A stretch of 35,026 nt of DNA from a virus (taxonomy: Duplodnaviria; Heunggongvirae; Uroviricota; Caudoviricetes), in the IMG/VR virus record IMGVR_UViG_2698536657_000017, positions 1-35,026 of that record; one strand, given 5' to 3'. Both the position numbers and the translations under genes were made by a program. How positions within the stretch are numbered: position 1 is the first letter of the stretch; each line of letters opens with the position of its first letter. The notes under the pieces are model-generated. The model was not told the DNA's origin. It worked only from the letters and a program-made list of their open reading frames with translations, and ran no database searches. Below are positions 3,823-21,068 of the stretch, piece by piece.

Positions 3823-4185
3823 TTATGAAAGTGTTCCTGCTGGTTCAATGCTGATAATTTCTGCTGCAATAAGCATACCTGCCAGCCATGCTTCGCCGAG
3901 CATGTCCTCATCCGTACATGCAAGATCACCGATCTGTATTGTGGCCATAATGTTAGTTTCACCGGTATATTCATCCTGTGCTTCTTCATACGGCAGGTTT
4001 TCATAAAGGTTTTCAATTGCGCAGGTTATTACATCCAGTCCCGTCAGATTGCCGACAACGTCCACTTCAAATGTTTCGCGGTACTCCCATTGCCCGAGTG
4101 TCAGACGAACCGTCTGTCTTGCCATGCGCCCGCATAATGTCATGTTCGGGTCGTAGTTCATGATTGCCGCAGTAGTGCTATTCAT
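3823..4185 (-). CDS. Hypothetical acidic protein (120 aa)
   Basis: The start MNSTTAAIMNYDP is preceded by GGAGG at a 5-nt spacing and overlaps the upstream stop by 8 nt. No family recognised. Confidence 0.6.
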   Translation of the reverse strand: MNSTTAAIMNYDPNMTLCGRMARQTVRLTLGQWEYRETFEVDVVGNLTGLDVITCAIENLYENLPYEEAQDEYTGETNIMATIQIGDLACTDEDMLGEAWLAGMLIAAEIISIEPAGTLS

Positions 4186-5047
4186 GTTCTGCCTCCGGTG
4201 TGTAAATAGCTTTGTCGTGTTTAAATTCACCGTTCCAGTTTTTCTTCATAGGGAGTTCACCGTTCATGTAAAACTGGTATAAACGGTGGCATCCTTTTTC
4301 CAGCAATACGGGGGTGAATTTCGTGAATGTTGCTTTCCCGTGTGGAGTGATCTGTACTGCTTCTTCGGTCAGGTATCTGTCACGGGCATAAGAGGCCGTG
4401 CGCCAGCGGGGTGTTTTCTCCGGATCGCGTTGTTCGTTGAATACCCATTTTCGGCCAGACAGCCACCACATTATCTGGCTGGTATTTACGCCGTTCAGCG
4501 CACGGCAGAACTGGGGAACAGTCATGCCTTTAGAGAAATGTTTTTCCAGACTGTCTACGGTTGCAGAGAGCGTTTTATTTTCCAGGGCCATAGCTTCAGC
4601 CCGTTCTTCGGCCTCAATAACCATCAACGCGAGTTCCTTGCGAGTGAGTACGCGCTGAACATCGATGTTTTCCCGCTGAGTGAAGTAGAACTCCACAAGG
4701 TCTTCGTGATAGTTCCACGCCTGATCCGTTTCCAGCAATTTTGCGTGGTTGGCTGCGCCGCGTTCGGTCCAGAGGATGAGGGATCGAACATTGCTGGCAA
4801 TTTTCACAGAGTAGCTTTGAGATACTCTGTGCTTAAGTTCACGTAGTTCATCGCCTTCCAGCAAAAAATAATGCTTTCCAACAACGAATCGTTCTTCGTT
4901 TCGGGAATGATTCTGGCGAATACGGATTGGTGTTGCTCCATAACCTGCCGCCAGTTGTTCAGTGGTCACAACGCGTTGACCGCGATATTCGATAATTTGC
5001 AAATCACGGGCTGCCACCGGCACAAGTTCAGTTGATTTTTTCATCAT
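4178..5047 (-). CDS. Antirepressor-like protein, ORF6N N-terminal domain plus KilAC-type C-terminal domain (289 aa)
   Basis: N-terminal LQIIEYRGQRVVTTEQLAAGYGATPIRIRQNHSRNEERFVVGKHYFLLEGDELRELK is typical of ORF6N/KilA-N-like domains. The C-terminal half (MTVPQFCRALNGVNTSQIMWWL) resembles phage antirepressor KilAC. GAGG RBS present. Confidence 0.75.
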   Translation of the reverse strand: MMKKSTELVPVAARDLQIIEYRGQRVVTTEQLAAGYGATPIRIRQNHSRNEERFVVGKHYFLLEGDELRELKHRVSQSYSVKIASNVRSLILWTERGAANHAKLLETDQAWNYHEDLVEFYFTQRENIDVQRVLTRKELALMVIEAEERAEAMALENKTLSATVDSLEKHFSKGMTVPQFCRALNGVNTSQIMWWLSGRKWVFNEQRDPEKTPRWRTASYARDRYLTEEAVQITPHGKATFTKFTPVLLEKGCHRLYQFYMNGELPMKKNWNGEFKHDKAIYTPEAEHE

Positions 5048-13425: not shown

Positions 13426-13503
13426 AGCCGGAGATATCCAGTAGACATTTTCCCCCTGAGCATTCAAATCAGAAAAAGTATGGTTACAGCGGAGTACAGA
13501 ATA

Positions 13504-13929
13504 ATGCGTGATATCCAACAGGTTCTGTCCCGATGGGGTGCATGGGTGGTAAATAATCATGAGAGTGTGGCATGGTCCGGCGTCGCTGCCGGATTTAAGG
13601 GAGTGATCCCATCAAAGGTTAAATCACGGCCTCAGTGTACCGATGATGATGCGCTGATTATCAGCAATTGCATGGCGCAACTGAACGTCAACAACAGCGA
13701 TTTGCATGATTTTCTGTATGATTATTATGTGTTCGGGATGACGCTTATGGGACTGGGCCGTAAGCATGAGCGCTCTGATTGCTGGGCCGGGCGGGTACTG
13801 CAAAAAGCTGAAGGTGTTATTGAGGGGATGTTGATTATGCAGGGAATAAAACTGGAAATGGACAGATACGTTGAGCGTGAACGATCAGGGGCACAGGTCA
13901 GTCAGTTTTCCGGACATACGGGAAATTGA
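13504..13929 (+). CDS. Q: Late-gene antiterminator Q, phage 82/21 (QuuD-like) type (141 aa)
   Basis: [60 protein letters not shown] matches my memory of Q82/QuuD-family proteins. I preferred this start over 13480 because GGAG lies upstream of it. Confidence 0.85.
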
Positions 13930-13953
13930 AAGCGCGGGGTTTTACTGTAGAAT
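13926..13953 (+). promoter_or_regulatory. Sigma70 promoter (TTGAAA-16-TAGAAT), most likely the hok mRNA promoter
   Basis: -35 at 13926-13931 (overlapping the Q stop codon) and -10 at 13948-13953. The predicted start at about 13961 coincides with GGTGCTTGAGG, which resembles the conserved 5' end of hok-family mRNAs. Confidence 0.55.
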
Positions 13954-14019
13954 GACTGCGGGTGCTTGAGGGTGTCTGCCTCGGGCATGCTGCCGTAAGG
14001 CAGACGGAGAAAAGCCCCA

Positions 14020-14080
14020 GTTAACATTACGCGTCCTGCAAGACGCTTAACATTAATCTGAGGCCAATTTCATGCTGAAC
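14020..14080 (-). ncRNA. sok: Sok-like antisense RNA (boundaries approximate)
   Basis: Minus-strand promoter TTGCCT-17-TAACCT (-35 at 14110-14115, -10 at 14087-14092) points into the hok leader. The transcript would be complementary to the upstream in-frame ATG (14072) region. It contains the hairpin GCGTC-N6-GACGC (14031-14046). Confidence 0.4.
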
Positions 14081-14128
14081 ACATGTAGGTTAGCCTCTTA
14101 CGTGCCGAAAGGCAAGGAGAAGCAGGCT

Positions 14129-14284
14129 ATGAAGCAGCAAAAGGCGATGTTAATCGCCCTGATCGTCATCTGTTTAACCGTCATTCTGACGGTACTGGTA
14201 GCGAGGAAAGACCTCTGCGATGTACGAATCCGAACCGGCCAGACGGAGGTCGCTGTCTTCGTAGACTACGAATCTGAGAAGTAA
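14129..14284 (+). CDS. hok: Hok/Gef-family type I toxin, HokD/RelF-like (51 aa)
   Basis: MKQQKAMLIALIVICLTVILTVLVARKDLCDVRIRTGQTEVAVFVDYESEK is near-identical in pattern to RelF/HokD as I remember it. AAGGAG RBS. The upstream leader resembles the hok mRNA fold-back elements. An in-frame upstream ATG at 14072 occupies the mok position. Confidence 0.9.
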   Translation: MKQQKAMLIALIVICLTVILTVLVARKDLCDVRIRTGQTEVAVFVDYESEK

Positions 14285-14458
14285 GAGACCTGGCGGGGGA
14301 GTAATCTCCCGCCCCCTCTGATGTGTCAGGCATCCTCAACGCACCCGTACTTTAGTTGTCATATGCTCCGCAAAATGCAGGTTGTCGTTGCAACCCGTGC
14401 GGTAATTTTTTGTGTGCGAGTGCTCAAAAAACGTTGATTTTCATAAAAGGACGATTTT

Positions 14459-16543
14459 ATGCTGCCAGACCAGCGACCAGCGACCAGCGACCGTAAATCA
14501 AGAAAGTCTGTAAAATCTGTTGAACCAGACATTGCCGACCGGGCTAACAACTGGCTCAAATCTTATGGACTTGATTACAAACTGGAGCAGGCACCACTTA
14601 ACAACGAGATCGATAACGCACTGGATGCTTATTTTTCGAAAAATGGCGGCACAGGCGGTAATCGTCCCGACGTAAAACTCCTTGTTCAGGACAAATACGG
14701 CAAGCAGTATCCCGTTCTCATCGAGTATAAAGGCTACAAGGACAGGCTTATCAGACTTGGCAGCAACGGTATTATTGAGAACAAAGATGCCAGAAAAGAA
14801 TGGAATTTTAAAAATATTAATGGATACGCGGTGAATGGCGCAGTCCATTATGCCAACGCACTTCTTCAGTTCACCAATTACCCTGATATTATTGCTATTG
14901 GTATGACCGGCTGGCGCGATGATGGTACAGGCGAACTGCATCATGAAATCGGCGTGTGGTACGTATCAAAGAATAATTTAGGAGCCGGGCAGAAGGTTGG
15001 TGAATTCACCGACTTATCGTTCCTTGCTGACAAAAATGTTGATGGATTTCTCAACAAGATAAAGCTGCTTAATCTTCCTCCCGAAGAACTGGAAAAAATC
15101 AAGGCCAGCAAAGAGGAAGAGATAGACACGCGACTTTCCCGTCTGAATAACGATATTTACCAGAATGAAAAGGGGCTTGGTGAAAGCGATCGTGTTTACC
15201 TTGTTGTGGCTACCGTTATTGCAACGTTGGGGATTCCGGGAAAGTTAGCACCGCTGGATAAAAAAGAACTGACCTCTTCAACGGAGGAGGACTTGCGTGA
15301 TGGTGATATTATTTTCAGGAAAATAAGGAATTTTTTAAGGCTGAAAGCTGTTCCTGAAACAAAAAGAGAAATGATTTTGCGCTCGTTGCAAAATACGCTG
15401 TGGACTGAAAACATTAACAAACCAGTCAACGGTGAAAGCCAGTTAAAGCGCGTGTTTGTTAAAGTTGTTGATGATCTTGGGGAGTATTACAAAATCGGAC
15501 TGACCACTGATTTTACGGGCAAACTGTTTAATGAGATGTATCGCTGGCTTGGATTTACGCAGGACAAACTCAATGACGTCGTTCTGACACCACCTTATGT
15601 TGCCACATTGCTGGCACGACTCGCCAGAGTAAACAAAGATTCCTATGTGTGGGATTTTGCTACAGGTTCTGCGGGATTGCTTGTGGCTGCAATGAATGAA
15701 ATGCTCATTGACGCCAGAGAAAATATTCACTCACCGAATGAACTACAACTTAAGGAAGCGCAAATCAAGGCTGAACAGCTTCTTGGCCTTGAGGTGTTAT
15801 CCAGTATTTATATGCTGGCCATCCTGAATATGATTTTGATGGGGGATGGTAGCTCGAATATCCTCAATAAAGACTCGCTAGCCGATTTTGACGGCAAGTA
15901 TGGATTTGGGAAAACAGGAGAAAAATTCCCTGCGGACGCATTTATTCTCAATCCTCCGTATTCAGCTAAAGGTAACGGCATGATTTTCGTGCAGAAGGCG
16001 CTGTCGATGATGGATAAAGGCTATGCTGCAGTGATTATCCAGAGTTCAGCCGGCACAGGAAAGGCTACGGAGTACAACAAAAAAATACTCAAGGAAAATA
16101 CCTTGCTGGCAAGCATCAAAATGCCTGCGGATCTGTTTATTGGTAAATCAAGCGTTCAGACGTACATTTACGTTTTTCAGGTAAAAATTCCGCATAACGC
16201 GAAACAGGCTGTTAAGTTTATCGACTTTTCCAATGACGGCTATGCTCGCTCTAATCGCAAAAAGGCAAGAAACAATCTTGTTGATGCCGATCGTGCAAAA
16301 GAGCGTTATCAGGAGGTTGTGGATCTGGTTCACTTCGGGAAAGGTTGCCTTAATATCTTTACGGAGGATGAATATTTTGAGGGAACAATCGATCCTGATA
16401 GTGGTGAGGACTGGAATCAGACCAGGCCAGTAGATGCTAGGCCAACGCTGGATGATTTCAAAAAGACGGTAGGTGATTACCTTGCATGGGAGGTCTCGCA
16501 ATTACTGAAAAAACAAGGTGAAAACAATTTTGCGGGAAAGTAA
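14459..16543 (+). CDS. Fused PD-ExK nuclease plus gamma-class N6-adenine DNA methyltransferase, BcgI-A-like RM subunit (694 aa)
   Basis: N-terminal D71-X17-E89-x-K91 (NRPDVKLLV...PVLIEYKG, nt 14666-14731). MTase motif I DFATGSAG (15653-15676) precedes motif IV NPPY (15950-15961). AAGGA RBS. It is followed by an HsdS-like gene, and no HsdR-like gene is present. Confidence 0.85.
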   Translation: MLPDQRPATSDRKSRKSVKSVEPDIADRANNWLKSYGLDYKLEQAPLNNEIDNALDAYFSKNGGTGGNRPDVKLLVQDKYGKQYPVLIEYKGYKDRLIRLGSNGIIENKDARKEWNFKNINGYAVNGAVHYANALLQFTNYPDIIAIGMTGWRDDGTGELHHEIGVWYVSKNNLGAGQKVGEFTDLSFLADKNVDGFLNKIKLLNLPPEELEKIKASKEEEIDTRLSRLNNDIYQNEKGLGESDRVYLVVATVIATLGIPGKLAPLDKKELTSSTEEDLRDGDIIFRKIRNFLRLKAVPETKREMILRSLQNTLWTENINKPVNGESQLKRVFVKVVDDLGEYYKIGLTTDFTGKLFNEMYRWLGFTQDKLNDVVLTPPYVATLLARLARVNKDSYVWDFATGSAGLLVAAMNEMLIDARENIHSPNELQLKEAQIKAEQLLGLEVLSSIYMLAILNMILMGDGSSNILNKDSLADFDGKYGFGKTGEKFPADAFILNPPYSAKGNGMIFVQKALSMMDKGYAAVIIQSSAGTGKATEYNKKILKENTLLASIKMPADLFIGKSSVQTYIYVFQVKIPHNAKQAVKFIDFSNDGYARSNRKKARNNLVDADRAKERYQEVVDLVHFGKGCLNIFTEDEYFEGTIDPDSGEDWNQTRPVDARPTLDDFKKTVGDYLAWEVSQLLKKQGENNFAGK
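14468..14492 (+). repeat. Heptanucleotide tandem repeat (GACCAGC) x3.6 inside codons 4-12 of the RM gene
   Basis: Perfect period-7 identity across 14468-14492 (gaccagc gaccagc gaccagc gacc). The unit length is not a multiple of 3. Confidence 0.9.
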
Positions 16544-16602
16544 ATTCCCCGCTCAGCGATAAATTAAGAAGCGTTGAGTGGGGAGAGTTCAGGATTGGCG
16601 AT

Positions 16603-17139
16603 TTGTTCTATGTGAGCACAGGCTCGCTTATCTCCTCAGGAAGATTAAAACCAGGCAAAATTAAACGTGTTTCAGCAAAGAGCGATCAAAACGGTATCAT
16701 CGGAGAGTTTGATACCGAGTTTATGGATGATGCAAGGCATTATGAAAATTTTATAAGCGTTAATTTTTTTGGAGATGCTTTTTATCATCCTTATTGTGCC
16801 AGCGTAGAAATGAAGGTGCATGTTCTTACATTAAAATCAAGTAAGTCCGACTTTAATGCAAAGCGCGGACTGTATGTTGCCAGTATGATTAATAAAGCTT
16901 TAAAGGGGCGTTTTAATTATGGTCAACAGTTATCGAGTTCCAAACTCAGAGATGGAGAATATTTCATCTCATTACCAGTGAAAAATAATGAAATTGACTG
17001 GTTTTTTATGGATAATTATATAGAAGAGCTGGAAGCGGCCCATATAGAAGAGCTGGAAGCTTACTTGCTGGTTAGCGGACTCGCGGACTCGCGGACTCGC
17101 GGACTCGCGGACTCGCGGACTCGCGGACTCGCGGACTGA
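16603..17139 (+). CDS. HsdS-like specificity subunit, N-terminal half (TRD1 plus central helix), terminated inside or after an 8-mer repeat tract
   Basis: The frame is open from 16522. It has the conserved S-subunit N-terminal motif VEWGEFRIGDLF, a TRD-like body, and a coiled-coil FFMDNYIEELEAAHIEELEAYL. It then reads through the repeat as GLADSRTRGLADSRTRGLAD and stops at TGA 17137. The only start codon after the motif region is TTG at 16603. Confidence 0.7.
   Translation: MFYVSTGSLISSGRLKPGKIKRVSAKSDQNGIIGEFDTEFMDDARHYENFISVNFFGDAFYHPYCASVEMKVHVLTLKSSKSDFNAKRGLYVASMINKALKGRFNYGQQLSSSKLRDGEYFISLPVKNNEIDWFFMDNYIEELEAAHIEELEAYLLVSGLADSRTRGLADSRTRGLAD
17018..17060 (+). repeat. In-frame 24-bp tandem duplication (ATATAGAAGAGCTGGAAGC core, x1.8) in the S central helix
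   Basis: Copies at 17018-17036 and 17042-17060 are identical and have a 24-nt period. They encode IEELEAAH/IEELEAYL. Confidence 0.85.
17075..17137 (+). repeat. Octanucleotide tandem repeat (GCGGACTC) x7.9 between the two halves of the S gene
   Basis: There are 7 perfect units at 17075-17130 plus 7 nt of an eighth. The unit length is not a multiple of 3. The flanking ORFs are in different frames (pos mod 3 = 1 upstream, 0 downstream). Confidence 0.97.
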
Positions 17140-17201
17140 TAAGCTATGAGCTTACACCGCAGGAATATAACGCGATTGAGCTATTAAATAGCAATAATCT
17201 T

Positions 17202-17723
17202 ATGTGGGGCACTTATAACCTCAAAAAGTTATTTGGCCCCGCAATAAGAGGTAAGCGTCTGAAAAACGCAGATCGTATTCCCGGATCCTTGCCTTTTGTT
17301 ACTGCGGGTGAAGGCAATGAAGGTATTTCTGCATTTATCAGTAATGATGTTGTTGTATTCCCTGAAAATACCATTACGATAGATATGTTTGGCTCCGCAA
17401 AATACAGAAATTATGAGTATGGTGCAGATGACCATGTGGCAGTTGTTCATACAGAATTCTTTGACAGAAATGCCGTTATTTTCATAACAGCATCAATTCA
17501 TAAGTCTTCTTGTACCGGAAAGTTCAACTACGGGAGAAATTTCTATGCAAAAGATGCCGACGAGTTAATGGTATCTTTGCCGTCAAAAGATAATAACCCT
17601 GATTATTCTTTCATGGAGACGCTAATTTTAGCAGTACATAAACTGGTCATCAAAGATGTTGTCCAGTACACTGATAAAAAGCTGGTAGCGTACAGGCAGA
17701 TTACATCTGAGAAGGTCGTTTAG
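17202..17723 (+). CDS. HsdS-like specificity subunit, C-terminal half (TRD2 plus C-terminal helix)
   Basis: MWGTYNLKKLF parallels WGEFRIGDLF of TRD1. Further parallels are MFGSAKYRNYEYG vs FFGDAFYHPYCAS, and VSLPSKDNNPDYSFMETLI vs ISLPVKNNEIDWFFMDNYI. The frame is open upstream through the repeat tract (...LISYELTPQEYNAIELLNSNNLM). Confidence 0.7.
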   Translation: MWGTYNLKKLFGPAIRGKRLKNADRIPGSLPFVTAGEGNEGISAFISNDVVVFPENTITIDMFGSAKYRNYEYGADDHVAVVHTEFFDRNAVIFITASIHKSSCTGKFNYGRNFYAKDADELMVSLPSKDNNPDYSFMETLILAVHKLVIKDVVQYTDKKLVAYRQITSEKVV

Positions 17724-17845
17724 TGCAAATCCCCACCTGACAGGGTGGGGAATGGTCAGGTTATCGTGCCCTGATGCAGAAAAACAGTTTACAATCGTAA
17801 AAATCATCATATCATGACAAAAGTGGTTACATTGCCACGCAGCCG

Positions 17846-17870
17846 AACCCGCCGATGCGCGGGTTTTTTG
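17846..17870 (+). terminator. Intrinsic terminator
   Basis: AACCCGC-cgat-GCGGGTT followed by a T6 run. Confidence 0.7.
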
Positions 17871-18050
17871 TATCCGGAATCCTGTGAGTTATACGGAAAG
17901 TACACAGAAAGGAAGGTGCGACCGCAATTAATAACAAAATCTTAAAAATTGCATATGGCACTATTAGTTTTCTAAATATTGTATATTTTGAGTATTGCAG
18001 GATATCCCCTGTAACGAAGTTTGCGTAACAGCATTTTACTCTACGAGTTT

Positions 18051-18081
18051 GCCAGCCTCCCCCAGTGGGCTGGCTTTTTTT
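18051..18081 (+). terminator. Intrinsic terminator
   Basis: GCCAGCC-tcccccagtg-GGCTGGC followed by T7. The T-run occurs only in the plus orientation. Confidence 0.65.
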
Positions 18082-18298
18082 ATCTGATGCGCTTCACATC
18101 AGGGTGACGTTCTGTTGCCGCTTCATGGAAAATGTCGCTGAGCCAGCCCGGTATCTCGTCTTCTGTCATATCGTCTGGAATGACAATATCGTATAACCGG
18201 GAGAATTTTCGTTCTGTCAGGTCTGCCCGGAAGACCAGCCAGTGATCACCTTCACGTTTGACACCAATATGTCGACCAAAGACGTTGTAGATTAGCAC
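18080..18298 (-). CDS. Hypothetical small acidic protein (72 aa, GTG start)
   Basis: AAGAGG RBS 6 nt upstream of the GTG. It is the only convincing minus-strand gene inside the rightward late region. No family recognised. Confidence 0.55.
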   Translation of the reverse strand: MLIYNVFGRHIGVKREGDHWLVFRADLTERKFSRLYDIVIPDDMTEDEIPGWLSDIFHEAATERHPDVKRIR

Positions 18299-18485
18299 TA
18301 TCGACCTCTTTCAGGAATTGTGTAACTGAGATGACAGATTCAGATTTCGTCAATAAATGCAAAATGTCAATCCTGAGATCATGGTGAGCTATCTGGCGGT
18401 TTTTTATATCTGTTTAACGGGGGATGTTACATACCTCACAATTCAGTCAGTTGAAGGTTGTCTGCCCGGATGAGAATTTGTTAGA

Positions 18486-18663
18486 AAATTTCTGCATGGT
18501 GAATCCCCCTGAGCGGAGGGGCATATCAGCGACAGGTGGTTGGTTATATCCCTTATCTGGTGCGGGTTCAGGTGCTGATACTGAACTCACCGGGAGGCAC
18601 CCGGCACCATGCAATGAACGGTACATAGCGCTACTCTTCAGCCCCTCTCCGGAGGGGCTTTTT
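18486..18663 (+). ncRNA. Candidate structured RNA / short terminated transcript, unit 1 (ends approximate)
   Basis: Promoter-like TTGAAG (18451-18456) with TGaGAATTT downstream. Closing helix TGCATGGTG (18493-18501) pairs with CACCATGCA (18605-18613). Hairpins CCCCT-N6-AGGGG and CCGGG-aggca-CCCGG. Terminator AGCCCCTC-tccg-GAGGGGCT-TTTT (18640-18663). Confidence 0.45.
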
Positions 18664-18752
18664 AATGAGGGGAAGACACTGGGCAGTGAAATGTTAAATC
18701 ACTCACAATTCAGGTAGTTGACGGTTGTCTGCTTGGCTGAGAATTTGTAAAA

Positions 18753-18939
18753 AAAATCCTGCATGGTGAATCCCCCTGTGCGGAGGGGCGACTGGTGAAT
18801 GGTATGATCTCTTTGATGATCGTAAGCGAGAATACGCGGGTTTGGTGGCACCAGGCCGAACTCACCGGGAGGCACCCGGCACCATGCAGTATACAGAGAT
18901 TAGGCATATACCAAGGCCCCTCATAGCAGGGGCCTTTTT
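18753..18939 (+). ncRNA. Candidate structured RNA / short terminated transcript, unit 2 (ends approximate)
   Basis: Promoter-like TTGACG with TGaGAATTT. Perfect 10-bp closing helix CTGCATGGTG (18759-18768) pairs with CACCATGCAG (18880-18889). It has the same two hairpins as unit 1. It has its own terminator AGGCCCCT-catagc-AGGGGCCT-TTTT (18914-18939). Confidence 0.45.
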
Positions 18940-19157
18940 ACATGCAAAAAAAGCCGCCCCGGGAAGAGCGGTTGGCAAGAAGAAAAGCAATATGAACAAT
19001 TAATTAACGATGGGAATAATACCTTAGAGTAATCACCTTGCGCAACTGTAAGGGCATATTTCATCTTTGCGGGCTGTTTTTCCGGGTGACTTCTGTGTTT
19101 CCGGAGGCCAGCCTGTACCTTCTCTGACTCAGAACATTATCCCGGCCGGGAGGATTC

Positions 19158-21068
19158 ATGGCATTTAAACACTATGACGTGGTCAGGGCGGCGTCGCCGT
19201 CAGACCTTGCGGAACGAATAACTCAAAAACTGAAGGAAGGGTGGCAGCCTTATGGTAGTGCGCTGATTTCGACAGCTGGTTATGGTGCGGAGTTCATCCA
19301 GCCAGTTGTGAGTGAGGGGAGCATCTCATCACCAGAGGAGCCAGGCAACCGTCCGACGACCTCAGCGCCTTCTGTTGCGCCAGAATATTACTATGTGATC
19401 GCGCTTGCTGGTCAGTCCAATGGTATGTCATACGGTGAGGGACTGCCATTACCGGATACATTCGACAGCCCTGATCCACGTATTAAACAGTTAGCGCGTC
19501 GCAGTACGGTGACACCGGGAGGTGCTGCATGTATCTATAACGATATTATCCCGGCAGATCACTGTCTCCATGATGTGGAGGATATGACAGGGCTTAATCA
19601 TCCCAAAGCGGATTTATCGAAAGGTCAGTACGGCTGTGTGGGACAGGGGCTGCATATCGCCAAAAAGCTTCTGCCATTTATACCGGCGAATGCGGGCATT
19701 CTTCTTGTTCCGTGCTGCCGTGGTGGTTCAGCTTTCACCACCGGAACCGATGGCACATACAGTGACACTACTGGCGCCTCAGAGAGTTCCACCCGCTGGG
19801 GGGTGGGCAGGCCGCTGTATAAGGACCTCATTGGTCGTACAAAAGCCGCGCTGGCGAAGAATCCGAAAAATGTGCTGCTTGCCGTGGTATGGATGCAAGG
19901 GGAATTTGATTTTAACGGAACGCCAGCGAATCATGCAGCCCGTTTTACAGAAGTGGTGGATCAATACCGTGCGGACCTTGCAGATATGGCGGGGCAGTGT
20001 GTGGGTGGCTCAGCTGACAGTGTTCCCTGGATTTGTGGAGACACAACATATTTCTGGAAGCAGAAGAACGAAACGGCGTACCAGACGGTGTACGGTAGTT
20101 ACAAAAATAAAACGGAAAAGAATATCCATTTCGTGCCGTTCATGACCGATGAGAACGGGGTGAATGTGCCGACGAACAAACCGGAAGAAGACCCGGATAT
20201 TCCGGATATCGGGTATTACGGTTCAAAATGGCGAACGGACAGAAGCACCTGGACATCTCAGGACAGGGCCAGTCATTTCAGTTCATGGGCTCGCCGTGGG
20301 ATTATTTCCGACCGTCTGGCAACGGCGATTCTGAGCTGCGCGGGTAAGTCTTCTGCGTTTGTTAATGGTACTGCCGGGGTGGTTGTTCCAGACAGACCGG
20401 TTACCACCTCAGAGTCTGTAATTTTTTACGATGCCAAAAAAGCTTCAGACAATCAGCTGAAACCTTATGGCTGGGACGGTATGGATGGCAGACGCACACT
20501 GGTTGATGACAGCGGCAATAAAGCTCTGCGAATTGAGAAAAATAACAGCGCGAAATCCTGGTCAATGTACTGTGATATTGCTGCAGACAAGGCAAAACTT
20601 TTACTGGAAAAAGGCGGGGAAATTGCTGTCCGGTTTAAAATCCCCGAAAACGTCAATCTTGAGACAACCAGAAACAAGTATGCCTTTGGTTTGTACTGGC
20701 GAATAGCGGAATGGCCGGGTGAGGGTGGTGAAGGCTATCTGAGTTCTTTCTTTGTCCAGACAGATAAAGCCAGTATTGATGTTGCATACCATCATACAGT
20801 TAATCAACAAAAAGAACTTGGCACGTTTGGCGCATTCGACCATGACTGGCATACGCTTGCATTTAAATTTAAGGGCAGTAACAGCATTAATGTTACTCCG
20901 GTGCTTGATGGTGTGGATGGACAGGCGTTTGACCTGGTGAAATGGGCCAATACTGCTAATGGACTCAACAGGTTTGTCATTACGGATATTACAGGTAGTG
21001 CAGAAACCTACCCTGTACTTATTGATACGGTGGAAGTTAAAGCAAACAAAGCTGGAGCAGCCGCATAA
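19158..21068 (+). CDS. nanS-p: Prophage sialate O-acetylesterase NanS-p type (DUF1737 N-terminus plus SASA/DUF303 esterase plus C-terminal domain), 636 aa
   Basis: N-terminal MAFKHYDVVRAASPSDLAERITQKLKEGWQPYGS (DUF1737-like). Esterase block YYYVIALAGQSNGMSYGEG with the GQSN motif. The size and the position downstream of the Q/stx slot match NanS-p genes of Stx phages, from memory. Confidence 0.85.
   Translation: MAFKHYDVVRAASPSDLAERITQKLKEGWQPYGSALISTAGYGAEFIQPVVSEGSISSPEEPGNRPTTSAPSVAPEYYYVIALAGQSNGMSYGEGLPLPDTFDSPDPRIKQLARRSTVTPGGAACIYNDIIPADHCLHDVEDMTGLNHPKADLSKGQYGCVGQGLHIAKKLLPFIPANAGILLVPCCRGGSAFTTGTDGTYSDTTGASESSTRWGVGRPLYKDLIGRTKAALAKNPKNVLLAVVWMQGEFDFNGTPANHAARFTEVVDQYRADLADMAGQCVGGSADSVPWICGDTTYFWKQKNETAYQTVYGSYKNKTEKNIHFVPFMTDENGVNVPTNKPEEDPDIPDIGYYGSKWRTDRSTWTSQDRASHFSSWARRGIISDRLATAILSCAGKSSAFVNGTAGVVVPDRPVTTSESVIFYDAKKASDNQLKPYGWDGMDGRRTLVDDSGNKALRIEKNNSAKSWSMYCDIAADKAKLLLEKGGEIAVRFKIPENVNLETTRNKYAFGLYWRIAEWPGEGGEGYLSSFFVQTDKASIDVAYHHTVNQQKELGTFGAFDHDWHTLAFKFKGSNSINVTPVLDGVDGQAFDLVKWANTANGLNRFVITDITGSAETYPVLIDTVEVKANKAGAAA

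Follow-up and report, generated by a model that had tools for sequence, protein, structure and literature searches.

A hok/sok toxin-antitoxin module of the hokW/hokD subgroup adjoining the antiterminator gene Q of a lambdoid prophage

The stretch of DNA analysed here, referred to throughout as the window, comprises 35,026 nucleotides (nt) of a virus of the Caudoviricetes (IMG/VR record IMGVR_UViG_2698536657_000017). Against the end of its gene for the antiterminator Q lies a segment, positions 13926-14354, which by its sequence elements has the complete structure of a hok/sok type I toxin-antitoxin locus. It is a module of the hokW/hokD subgroup, carried as a self-contained 'moron' by a lambdoid, stx-negative prophage of the Shiga toxin (Stx) phage family. 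The locus is already known in kind: the family is a textbook one, a near-identical copy has been characterised and the arrangement is present in public annotated genomes. Its elements are the following, with positions counted from the first letter of the window.

13926-13953, plus strand: hok promoter, with a -35 hexamer TTGAAA (13926-13931), a 16-nt spacer and a -10 hexamer TAGAAT (13948-13953); 10/12 in the promoter scan.
13960-14354, plus strand: predicted full-length hok mRNA of about 395 nt, with a deduced 5' end and an approximate 3' end.
13960-13971, plus strand: tac, the 5' element GGGUGCUUGAGG, paired with 14334-14346 in the minimum-free-energy (MFE) and centroid folds.
14010-14080, minus strand: predicted Sok antisense RNA of 71 nt, placed by ungapped transfer of the sokW annotation of phage 933W.
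14072-14284, plus strand: mok leader open reading frame (ORF) of 70 codons, in frame with hok, with a Shine-Dalgarno sequence GAGG (14060-14063) 8 nt upstream of the ATG.
14087-14115, minus strand: Sok promoter, with -35 TTGCCT (complement of 14110-14115), a 17-nt spacer and -10 TAACCT (complement of 14087-14092); the start at 14080 is a deduced one.
14129-14284, plus strand: hok toxin gene of 51 amino acids, with a Shine-Dalgarno sequence AAGGAG (14114-14119) and a match to Pfam HOK_GEF.
14292-14313, plus strand: GC-rich hairpin of 9 base pairs (bp) directly past the hok stop codon, distinct from fbi.
14334-14346, plus strand: fbi, the fold-back-inhibition element CCUCAACGCACCC, forming 12 bp with tac around a 1-nt bulge.
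14368-14411, plus strand: tentatively, a terminator-like compound hairpin with a U run, downstream of the cassette.

All hallmarks of the family that can be tested on sequence are found here, that is, a Hok peptide, a mok frame with its own Shine-Dalgarno sequence, an antisense sok gene at the conserved position and pairing between tac and fbi. The predicted toxin, described in the initial annotation of this DNA as Hok/RelF-like, matches HOK_GEF with E=1.3e-20 and 73 bits (cut-off 22) over the full profile (1-42). At the DNA level the 408 nt of the cassette (13947-14354) are 92.6-92.9% identical to the annotated hokW/mokW/sokW loci of 933W and VT2-Sakai/Sp5; hokD-type loci from other E. coli prophages and from plasmids show about 88-90% identity. 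Several published hokW-sokW primers (PMC8621323) have exact matches in the window, YO-350 and YO-597 among them as reverse complements, and RefSeq already annotates the toxin at the same position in related E. coli prophages. Because every defining element that can be tested on sequence is present and the cassette is this close to the experimentally tested hokW-sokW, the core claim of the initial annotation, that a complete hok/sok locus abuts Q, is upheld. Nearly all of the features it named are present, and jointly they lie far beyond chance. The interval it gave, 13926-14330, ends too early: fbi lies beyond it and homology to hokW runs on to 14354.

The leader and the ends of the hok mRNA can be placed with some precision. 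A covariance-model scan, which the initial annotation had proposed, matches Rfam RF01794 ('sok') to 13960-14134 on the plus strand with 108 bits (gathering score 59; E=7.7e-24) over the full model (1-157), from GGGUGCUUGAG / tac to the hok AUG. Although the model is named for the antitoxin, its match lies on the hok-encoding strand, so that a hit identifies the hok leader and says nothing of the strand on which Sok lies or of how far it extends. The predicted 5' end of the mRNA follows from the start of this match, 7 nt past the -10 hexamer, within the region of homology to hokW. The resemblance of the leader to that of R1 is borne out: GGTGCTTGAGGGTGTCTGCCTC at 13961-13982 agrees with the R1-type GGCGCTTGAGGCTTTCTGCCTC at 19 of 22 positions, and the toxin initiation region TAGCCTCTTAC..GCAAGGAGAAG..ATG is common to the window and R1-type plasmids.

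When the RNA 13960-14354 is folded, its MFE is -166.3 kcal/mol (z=-6.4 against shuffles), and tac and fbi pair in both the MFE and the centroid structure. The initial annotation had allowed for disrupted fold-back elements, as in inactive chromosomal hok loci; in fact both tac and fbi are unchanged relative to hokW. The tac-fbi helix is invariant in all seven aligned hokW, hokD and Q-adjacent loci, and testing it for covariation within this subgroup was for that reason uninformative, while two other helices show compensatory pairs across the same seven loci. An R1-type mRNA, whose sequence is different, was folded separately since MAFFT misaligned its 3' end, and an equivalent pairing of its 5' and 3' ends is predicted. 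For the mRNA of the window without its last 34 nt, the prediction changes to one in which the 5' end engages in local structure. The hairpin at 14292-14313 shows one compensatory pair among relatives (alignment columns 338/351). It had been put forward as the 3' fold-back structure, and while the GC-rich stem is indeed there, that role belongs to the true fbi 20 nt further downstream; by its position the hairpin is presumably the equivalent of the one that closes the truncated, active mRNA of R1 at its 3' end. The compound hairpin at 14368-14411 is common to the Q-adjacent lineage only, its fold energy is no better than that of shuffles and it was not called in the terminator scan. Permissive-threshold Rfam searches around the locus and around the late promoter pR' gave nothing further.

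The mok frame shares its layout with the family. Its ATG at 14072 is in frame with hok, as had been noted, but the supposed contrast with R1 does not hold, since the mok-position ATG of an R1-type plasmid is likewise in frame with hok and mokW of 933W is annotated identically; the idea that an in-frame mok is an anomaly was rejected, the arrangement being normal for the family. On the opposite strand, the predicted Sok consists of a 15-nt single-stranded 5' tail lying over the mok start, a long hairpin with a 16-nt extension relative to the Rfam model, and a terminal UUUU (-28.7 kcal/mol, z=-4.9). The hexamers of its promoter are present at the conserved position and their sequence is identical to that of sokW in 933W; the primers YO-421/422, used for mutagenesis of the sokW -10 (PMC8621323), flank the homologous site. 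Across 11 distinct aligned cassettes, nucleotide diversity is highest at 14065-14089, the region of the Sok 5' tail and its target at the mok start, reaching 0.36 as compared with 0.07 cassette-wide, about a fivefold rise. Such a hypervariable tail would fit copy-specific recognition by Sok. A second diversity peak is seen in the loop of the 5' hairpin (13985-13999).

Among characterised systems, hokW-mokW-sokW of 933W and Sp5/VT2-Sakai stands closest, with the same tac, fbi, Sok promoter, hok Shine-Dalgarno sequence and mok frame, and likewise a 51-amino-acid toxin and a 71-nt Sok with the same fold. The 28 differences in 395 nt spare tac, fbi, the Sok promoter and the hok Shine-Dalgarno sequence altogether, and 11 of them fall in the 5' hairpin. 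The genomic setting differs, however: in 933W, hokW is found close to the right end of the prophage and on the other strand from the late genes, whereas the present locus directly follows Q and is co-oriented with it. The hokD (relF)/sokD loci of Qin-like lambdoid prophages and some plasmids are prophage-borne, very common and built of the same elements, but their place is in the nin region, upstream of rem/DUF968, and not downstream of Q, and they differ from this locus in the Hok C-terminus and the Sok recognition tail. R1 hok/sok (parB) has the same architecture, with a 5' GGCGCUUGAGG element that pairs with the 3' end, mok in frame and the same Sok promoter site, and it shares the TAGCCTCTTAC and CAAGGAGAAG motifs; its DNA aligns with this locus in short stretches only. 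HokW and R1 Hok are 44% identical (PMC8621323). R1 hok/sok differs further in being plasmid-borne and in having a documented role in post-segregational killing.

If the locus behaves like its homologues R1 hok/sok and hokW-sokW, transcription from the promoter at the Q stop codon would yield a stable hok mRNA in which the pairing of tac with fbi prevents both translation of the full-length RNA and access by Sok. Slow trimming of the 3' end back to the GC hairpin would then permit the RNA to refold. Meanwhile Sok (14080 to 14010, minus strand) would be made from the promoter inside the leader, and its 5' tail would pair with the mok start region, blocking translation of mok and hence of hok. 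Should the supply of Sok stop, Mok and Hok would be translated and Hok would damage the inner membrane. Much of this has a direct counterpart in the prophage homologue: HokW is toxic and halts growth, sokW overcomes this effect both when transcribed from its own promoter and when supplied in trans, treatment with mitomycin C leads to RecA-dependent disappearance of sokW and accumulation of HokW, and deletion of the hokW-sokW locus halves the release of Sp5 phage (PMC8621323). In addition, among the morons of an LF82 prophage, hokD shows the highest transcription (PMC9928086).

The position of the locus has to be seen in the context of the surrounding island and of the late control region beyond it, the features of which are as follows.

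13480-13929, plus strand: antiterminator Q gene (Pfam Phage_antitermQ, 2.5e-45).
13882-17779, no strand assigned: island of 3.9 kb between the Q body and the late promoter; its flanks are 37 nt apart in 933W.
14459-16543, plus strand: fused restriction enzyme-methyltransferase, Type IIG/IIB, BcgI-alpha-like (PADLOC REase_MTase_IIG, 7e-234; Pfam N6_Mtase).
14470-14490: repeat (CCAGCGA)x3 in the 5' end of the restriction-methyltransferase gene, 11 nt after its start codon.
16603-17139 and 17202-17723, plus strand: two ORFs encoding the halves of a specificity subunit (Pfam Methylase_S; PADLOC Specificity_II positions 95-155 and 181-332 of 341).
17788-18081, plus strand: displaced late control region, with pR', an StxS-type leader and tR'.

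The Q protein shares 64-67% amino acid identity with Q of 933W-type Stx phages, except that its last 16 codons (13882-13929) are non-homologous to 933W Q, DNA homology in a local BLAST comparison stopping at 13881. Homology to 933W resumes at 17780, where 17780-18080 is 93.7% identical to 933W 20658-20957, a segment annotated with pR', qut and terminators. As the two flanks are 37 nt apart in 933W and are here split by 13882-17779, an inserted island separates Q from its late promoter. It contains the replacement Q tail, hok/sok, the restriction-modification genes and the ORF 17202-17723, and hok/sok arrived in it as one unit with the Type IIG/IIB restriction-modification gene. The pR' homologue reads TTTACA-16-TATCAT at 17788-17815 and scores 10/12 in the promoter scan (TTTACG-16-TATCAT in 933W). 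Terminators were called at 17845-17866 and 18051-18074, the latter hairpin with its T run being tR'. The spacing from pR' to tR' is about 260 nt here, and in Stx phages a pR'-tR' unit of 258 nt yields the small RNA StxS (PMC7547250). The same source places StxS 'directly downstream of Q', which is not so here because the island intervenes. Stx-type moron cargo (tRNAs, stx, nanS-p) occupies the same phage backbone and general region as this island, but usually lies downstream of pR'-tR', whereas the island is upstream of pR', between Q and its promoter.

The hok promoter itself is a hybrid. As had been recognised, it overlaps the end of Q, the stop codon TGA (13927-13929) falling inside its -35 hexamer. 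The cassette shared with 933W, hokD loci and most E. coli matches starts at 13947, and therefore the -10 hexamer is cassette-borne while the -35 hexamer comes from flanking island sequence; the 933W counterpart of the latter is TTTGCG, with a 17-nt spacer.

Of 5426 complete E. coli genomes, 4018-4711 have homologues of the cassette, the median being two copies to a genome. The junction of Q with hok is much less frequent, with matches in 13 of the 5426 genomes to a 126-nt probe and in 29 to a 321-nt probe, and it is present in phage PhiR12_3 and 19 IMG/VR contigs as well; a scan of species-representative genomes gave no match to it. In one of these contigs, IMGVR_UViG_2703718798_000011 (14,284 nt), the junction lies at the same coordinate, 13926, and the last 359 nt are identical to the window, so that both probably derive from one genome or from two that are almost alike. 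Eleven Q-adjacent relatives extend at least 1.8 kb downstream, and every one of them has the same restriction-modification gene after hok; in each of the six that extend about 4 kb or further, that gene is in turn followed by the pR' homologue. A TAG positioned 4 nt ahead of the hok ATG shortens mok to 17 codons in relatives of the PhiR12_3 type. The six Q-adjacent loci whose hok is inactivated, by frameshift or by a stop after MKQ, keep tac, fbi and the Sok promoter. Literature searches on hok adjoining Q, and on hok with restriction-modification in Stx phages, found nothing specific.

In the restriction-modification gene, relatives carry 3, 8, 8, 15, 16, 18, 23, 33, 82 and about 100 copies of the (CCAGCGA)n unit, so that all three reading frames are covered, and the tract looks like one that would support repeat-mediated phase variation, which is unusual for E. 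coli; a search of the literature for heptanucleotide phase variation in restriction-modification genes of E. coli prophages gave no specific result. The tract is also the point at which many IMG/VR contigs stop. The Type II specificity subunit is split over two ORFs, and a segment at about 16497-17018 is replaced in relatives, a pattern that suggests shuffling of target-recognition domains or decay.

Further downstream, a pR'-StxS-tR' homologue is thus found 3.9 kb from Q in a prophage that is itself stx-negative; close relatives with the island carry stx2 further downstream. Rfam matches to DsrA and Qrr at 17983-18083 are weak and sub-threshold, and that to DsrA (17994-18076) overlaps the part equivalent to short StxS. 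Two tandem copies of the small RNA STnc100 follow at 18465-18670 and 18732-18945 (Rfam 153 and 200 bits), at the site that tRNA genes and stx occupy in related Stx phages; tRNA genes are absent from the window. A conserved promoter-like motif, CACTCACAATTCAG..TTGA(C/A)GGTTGTCTGC, precedes each copy. A single related copy lies between stxB and nanS-p in 933W, and the possibility that the copies at 18465-18945 form a late leader was rejected on the ground that this counterpart is downstream of stxB and not beside Q.

Collectively these results indicate that the locus is very probably an intact, working hok/sok module, a judgement drawn from its intact elements and from its experimentally tested homologue. 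A number of points weigh against it. The refolding pathway is a predicted one, drawn from MFE folds and from the R1 literature. The NCBIfam Hok models score this Hok at 46 bits, under their curated cut-off of 73, and hok differs from that of hokW by 7 nt and 4 amino acids; the target of the Sok 5' tail differs at three of its 15 positions. The antisense promoter, called good in the initial annotation, matches the consensus at only 7 of 12 positions, which is below the threshold of the promoter scan and leaves it unlisted there, and as the hok -35 hexamer is unlike that of hokW, an equal level of expression cannot be assumed. Finally, hok is intact in 17 of the 23 loci with the Q junction and carries a frameshift or nonsense mutation in the other six, among them the closest full-length relative, E. 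coli 04-00955, so that the toxin is evidently dispensable.

Such losses are what would be expected if the locus were, as several chromosomal hok loci are, a relic in decay or fallen silent, intact in appearance but encoding no active toxin or never de-repressed. In keeping with this, other E. coli copies are interrupted by ISNCY or insertion sequence (IS) elements. The relic explanation is nonetheless improbable: this copy has an uninterrupted hok ORF, its tac, fbi, Sok promoter and two Shine-Dalgarno sequences are unchanged from hokW, which is active in experiments, and the substitutions in helices are compensatory or yield G-U pairs. A different challenge concerns the promoter at the Q stop codon, which might be, or might replace, the Q-dependent late promoter, making hok the first gene of the late operon. 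The expectation of a late promoter at this place is sound in so far as the annotated pR' of 933W does overlap the Q stop codon, and the promoter found here is a strong match to the consensus. Yet the -10 hexamer and everything downstream of it belong to a hok cassette that occurs without Q in 933W, hokD loci and plasmids, and 13926-13953 has no similarity to pR'/qut of 933W. The Q-dependent promoter was rejected at this site once the 933W pR'-StxS-tR' homologue had been found at 17780-18080, just upstream of the region leading to the lysis genes. It would be extremely surprising if the late-promoter explanation were correct; what lies at the Q stop is the promoter of hok.

If the module does work, it may serve its host prophage in more than one way. 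The most likely role would be to help lysis on prophage induction, as measured for hokW-sokW, and/or to act by addiction in stabilising the prophage and the island. That addiction, with the killing of cells that lose the prophage and its restriction-modification island, or else abortive infection against phages that shut off host transcription, should be the main role instead of help in lysis is a tentative and on balance unlikely proposition. The unbroken linkage of hok/sok with the restriction-modification gene in the 11 informative relatives speaks for it, as does R1 hok/sok, which, in work as cited in PMC8621323, stabilises plasmids and reduces the plating of T4. On the other hand, the sole direct test of a prophage copy, hokW-sokW, gave a lysis and release phenotype (PMC8621323), the frequent inactivation of the toxin argues against a strong addictive hold, and no PADLOC model matches Hok. 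It is also conceivable, although quite doubtful when taken as a whole, that the placement of the island between Q and pR', co-oriented with the early-right operon, wires Hok to prophage induction. Antiterminated early transcription running through Q would then meet the Sok promoter head-on while contributing hok-sense RNA of its own. The ensuing drop in Sok and timed increase in Hok would let the toxin serve as an auxiliary, holin-like lysis factor. The module might in addition hold the phase-variable Type IIG/IIB restriction-modification gene in the prophage, with the hypervariable Sok tail keeping each of the several hok/sok copies per genome private. The RecA-dependent disappearance of sokW that has been reported in Sp5 would agree with wiring of this kind.

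There is thus little about the locus that is new in kind, and what had seemed to be its oddities are normal for the family. The practical yield is a corrected map, with the true fbi and a hybrid promoter, and the recognition that hok/sok and a repeat-bearing restriction-modification gene move together in a single island. That Q and the late promoter with its StxS leader can be 3.9 kb apart matters when the control of late genes or of Shiga toxin is predicted from 'Q-adjacent' sequence.

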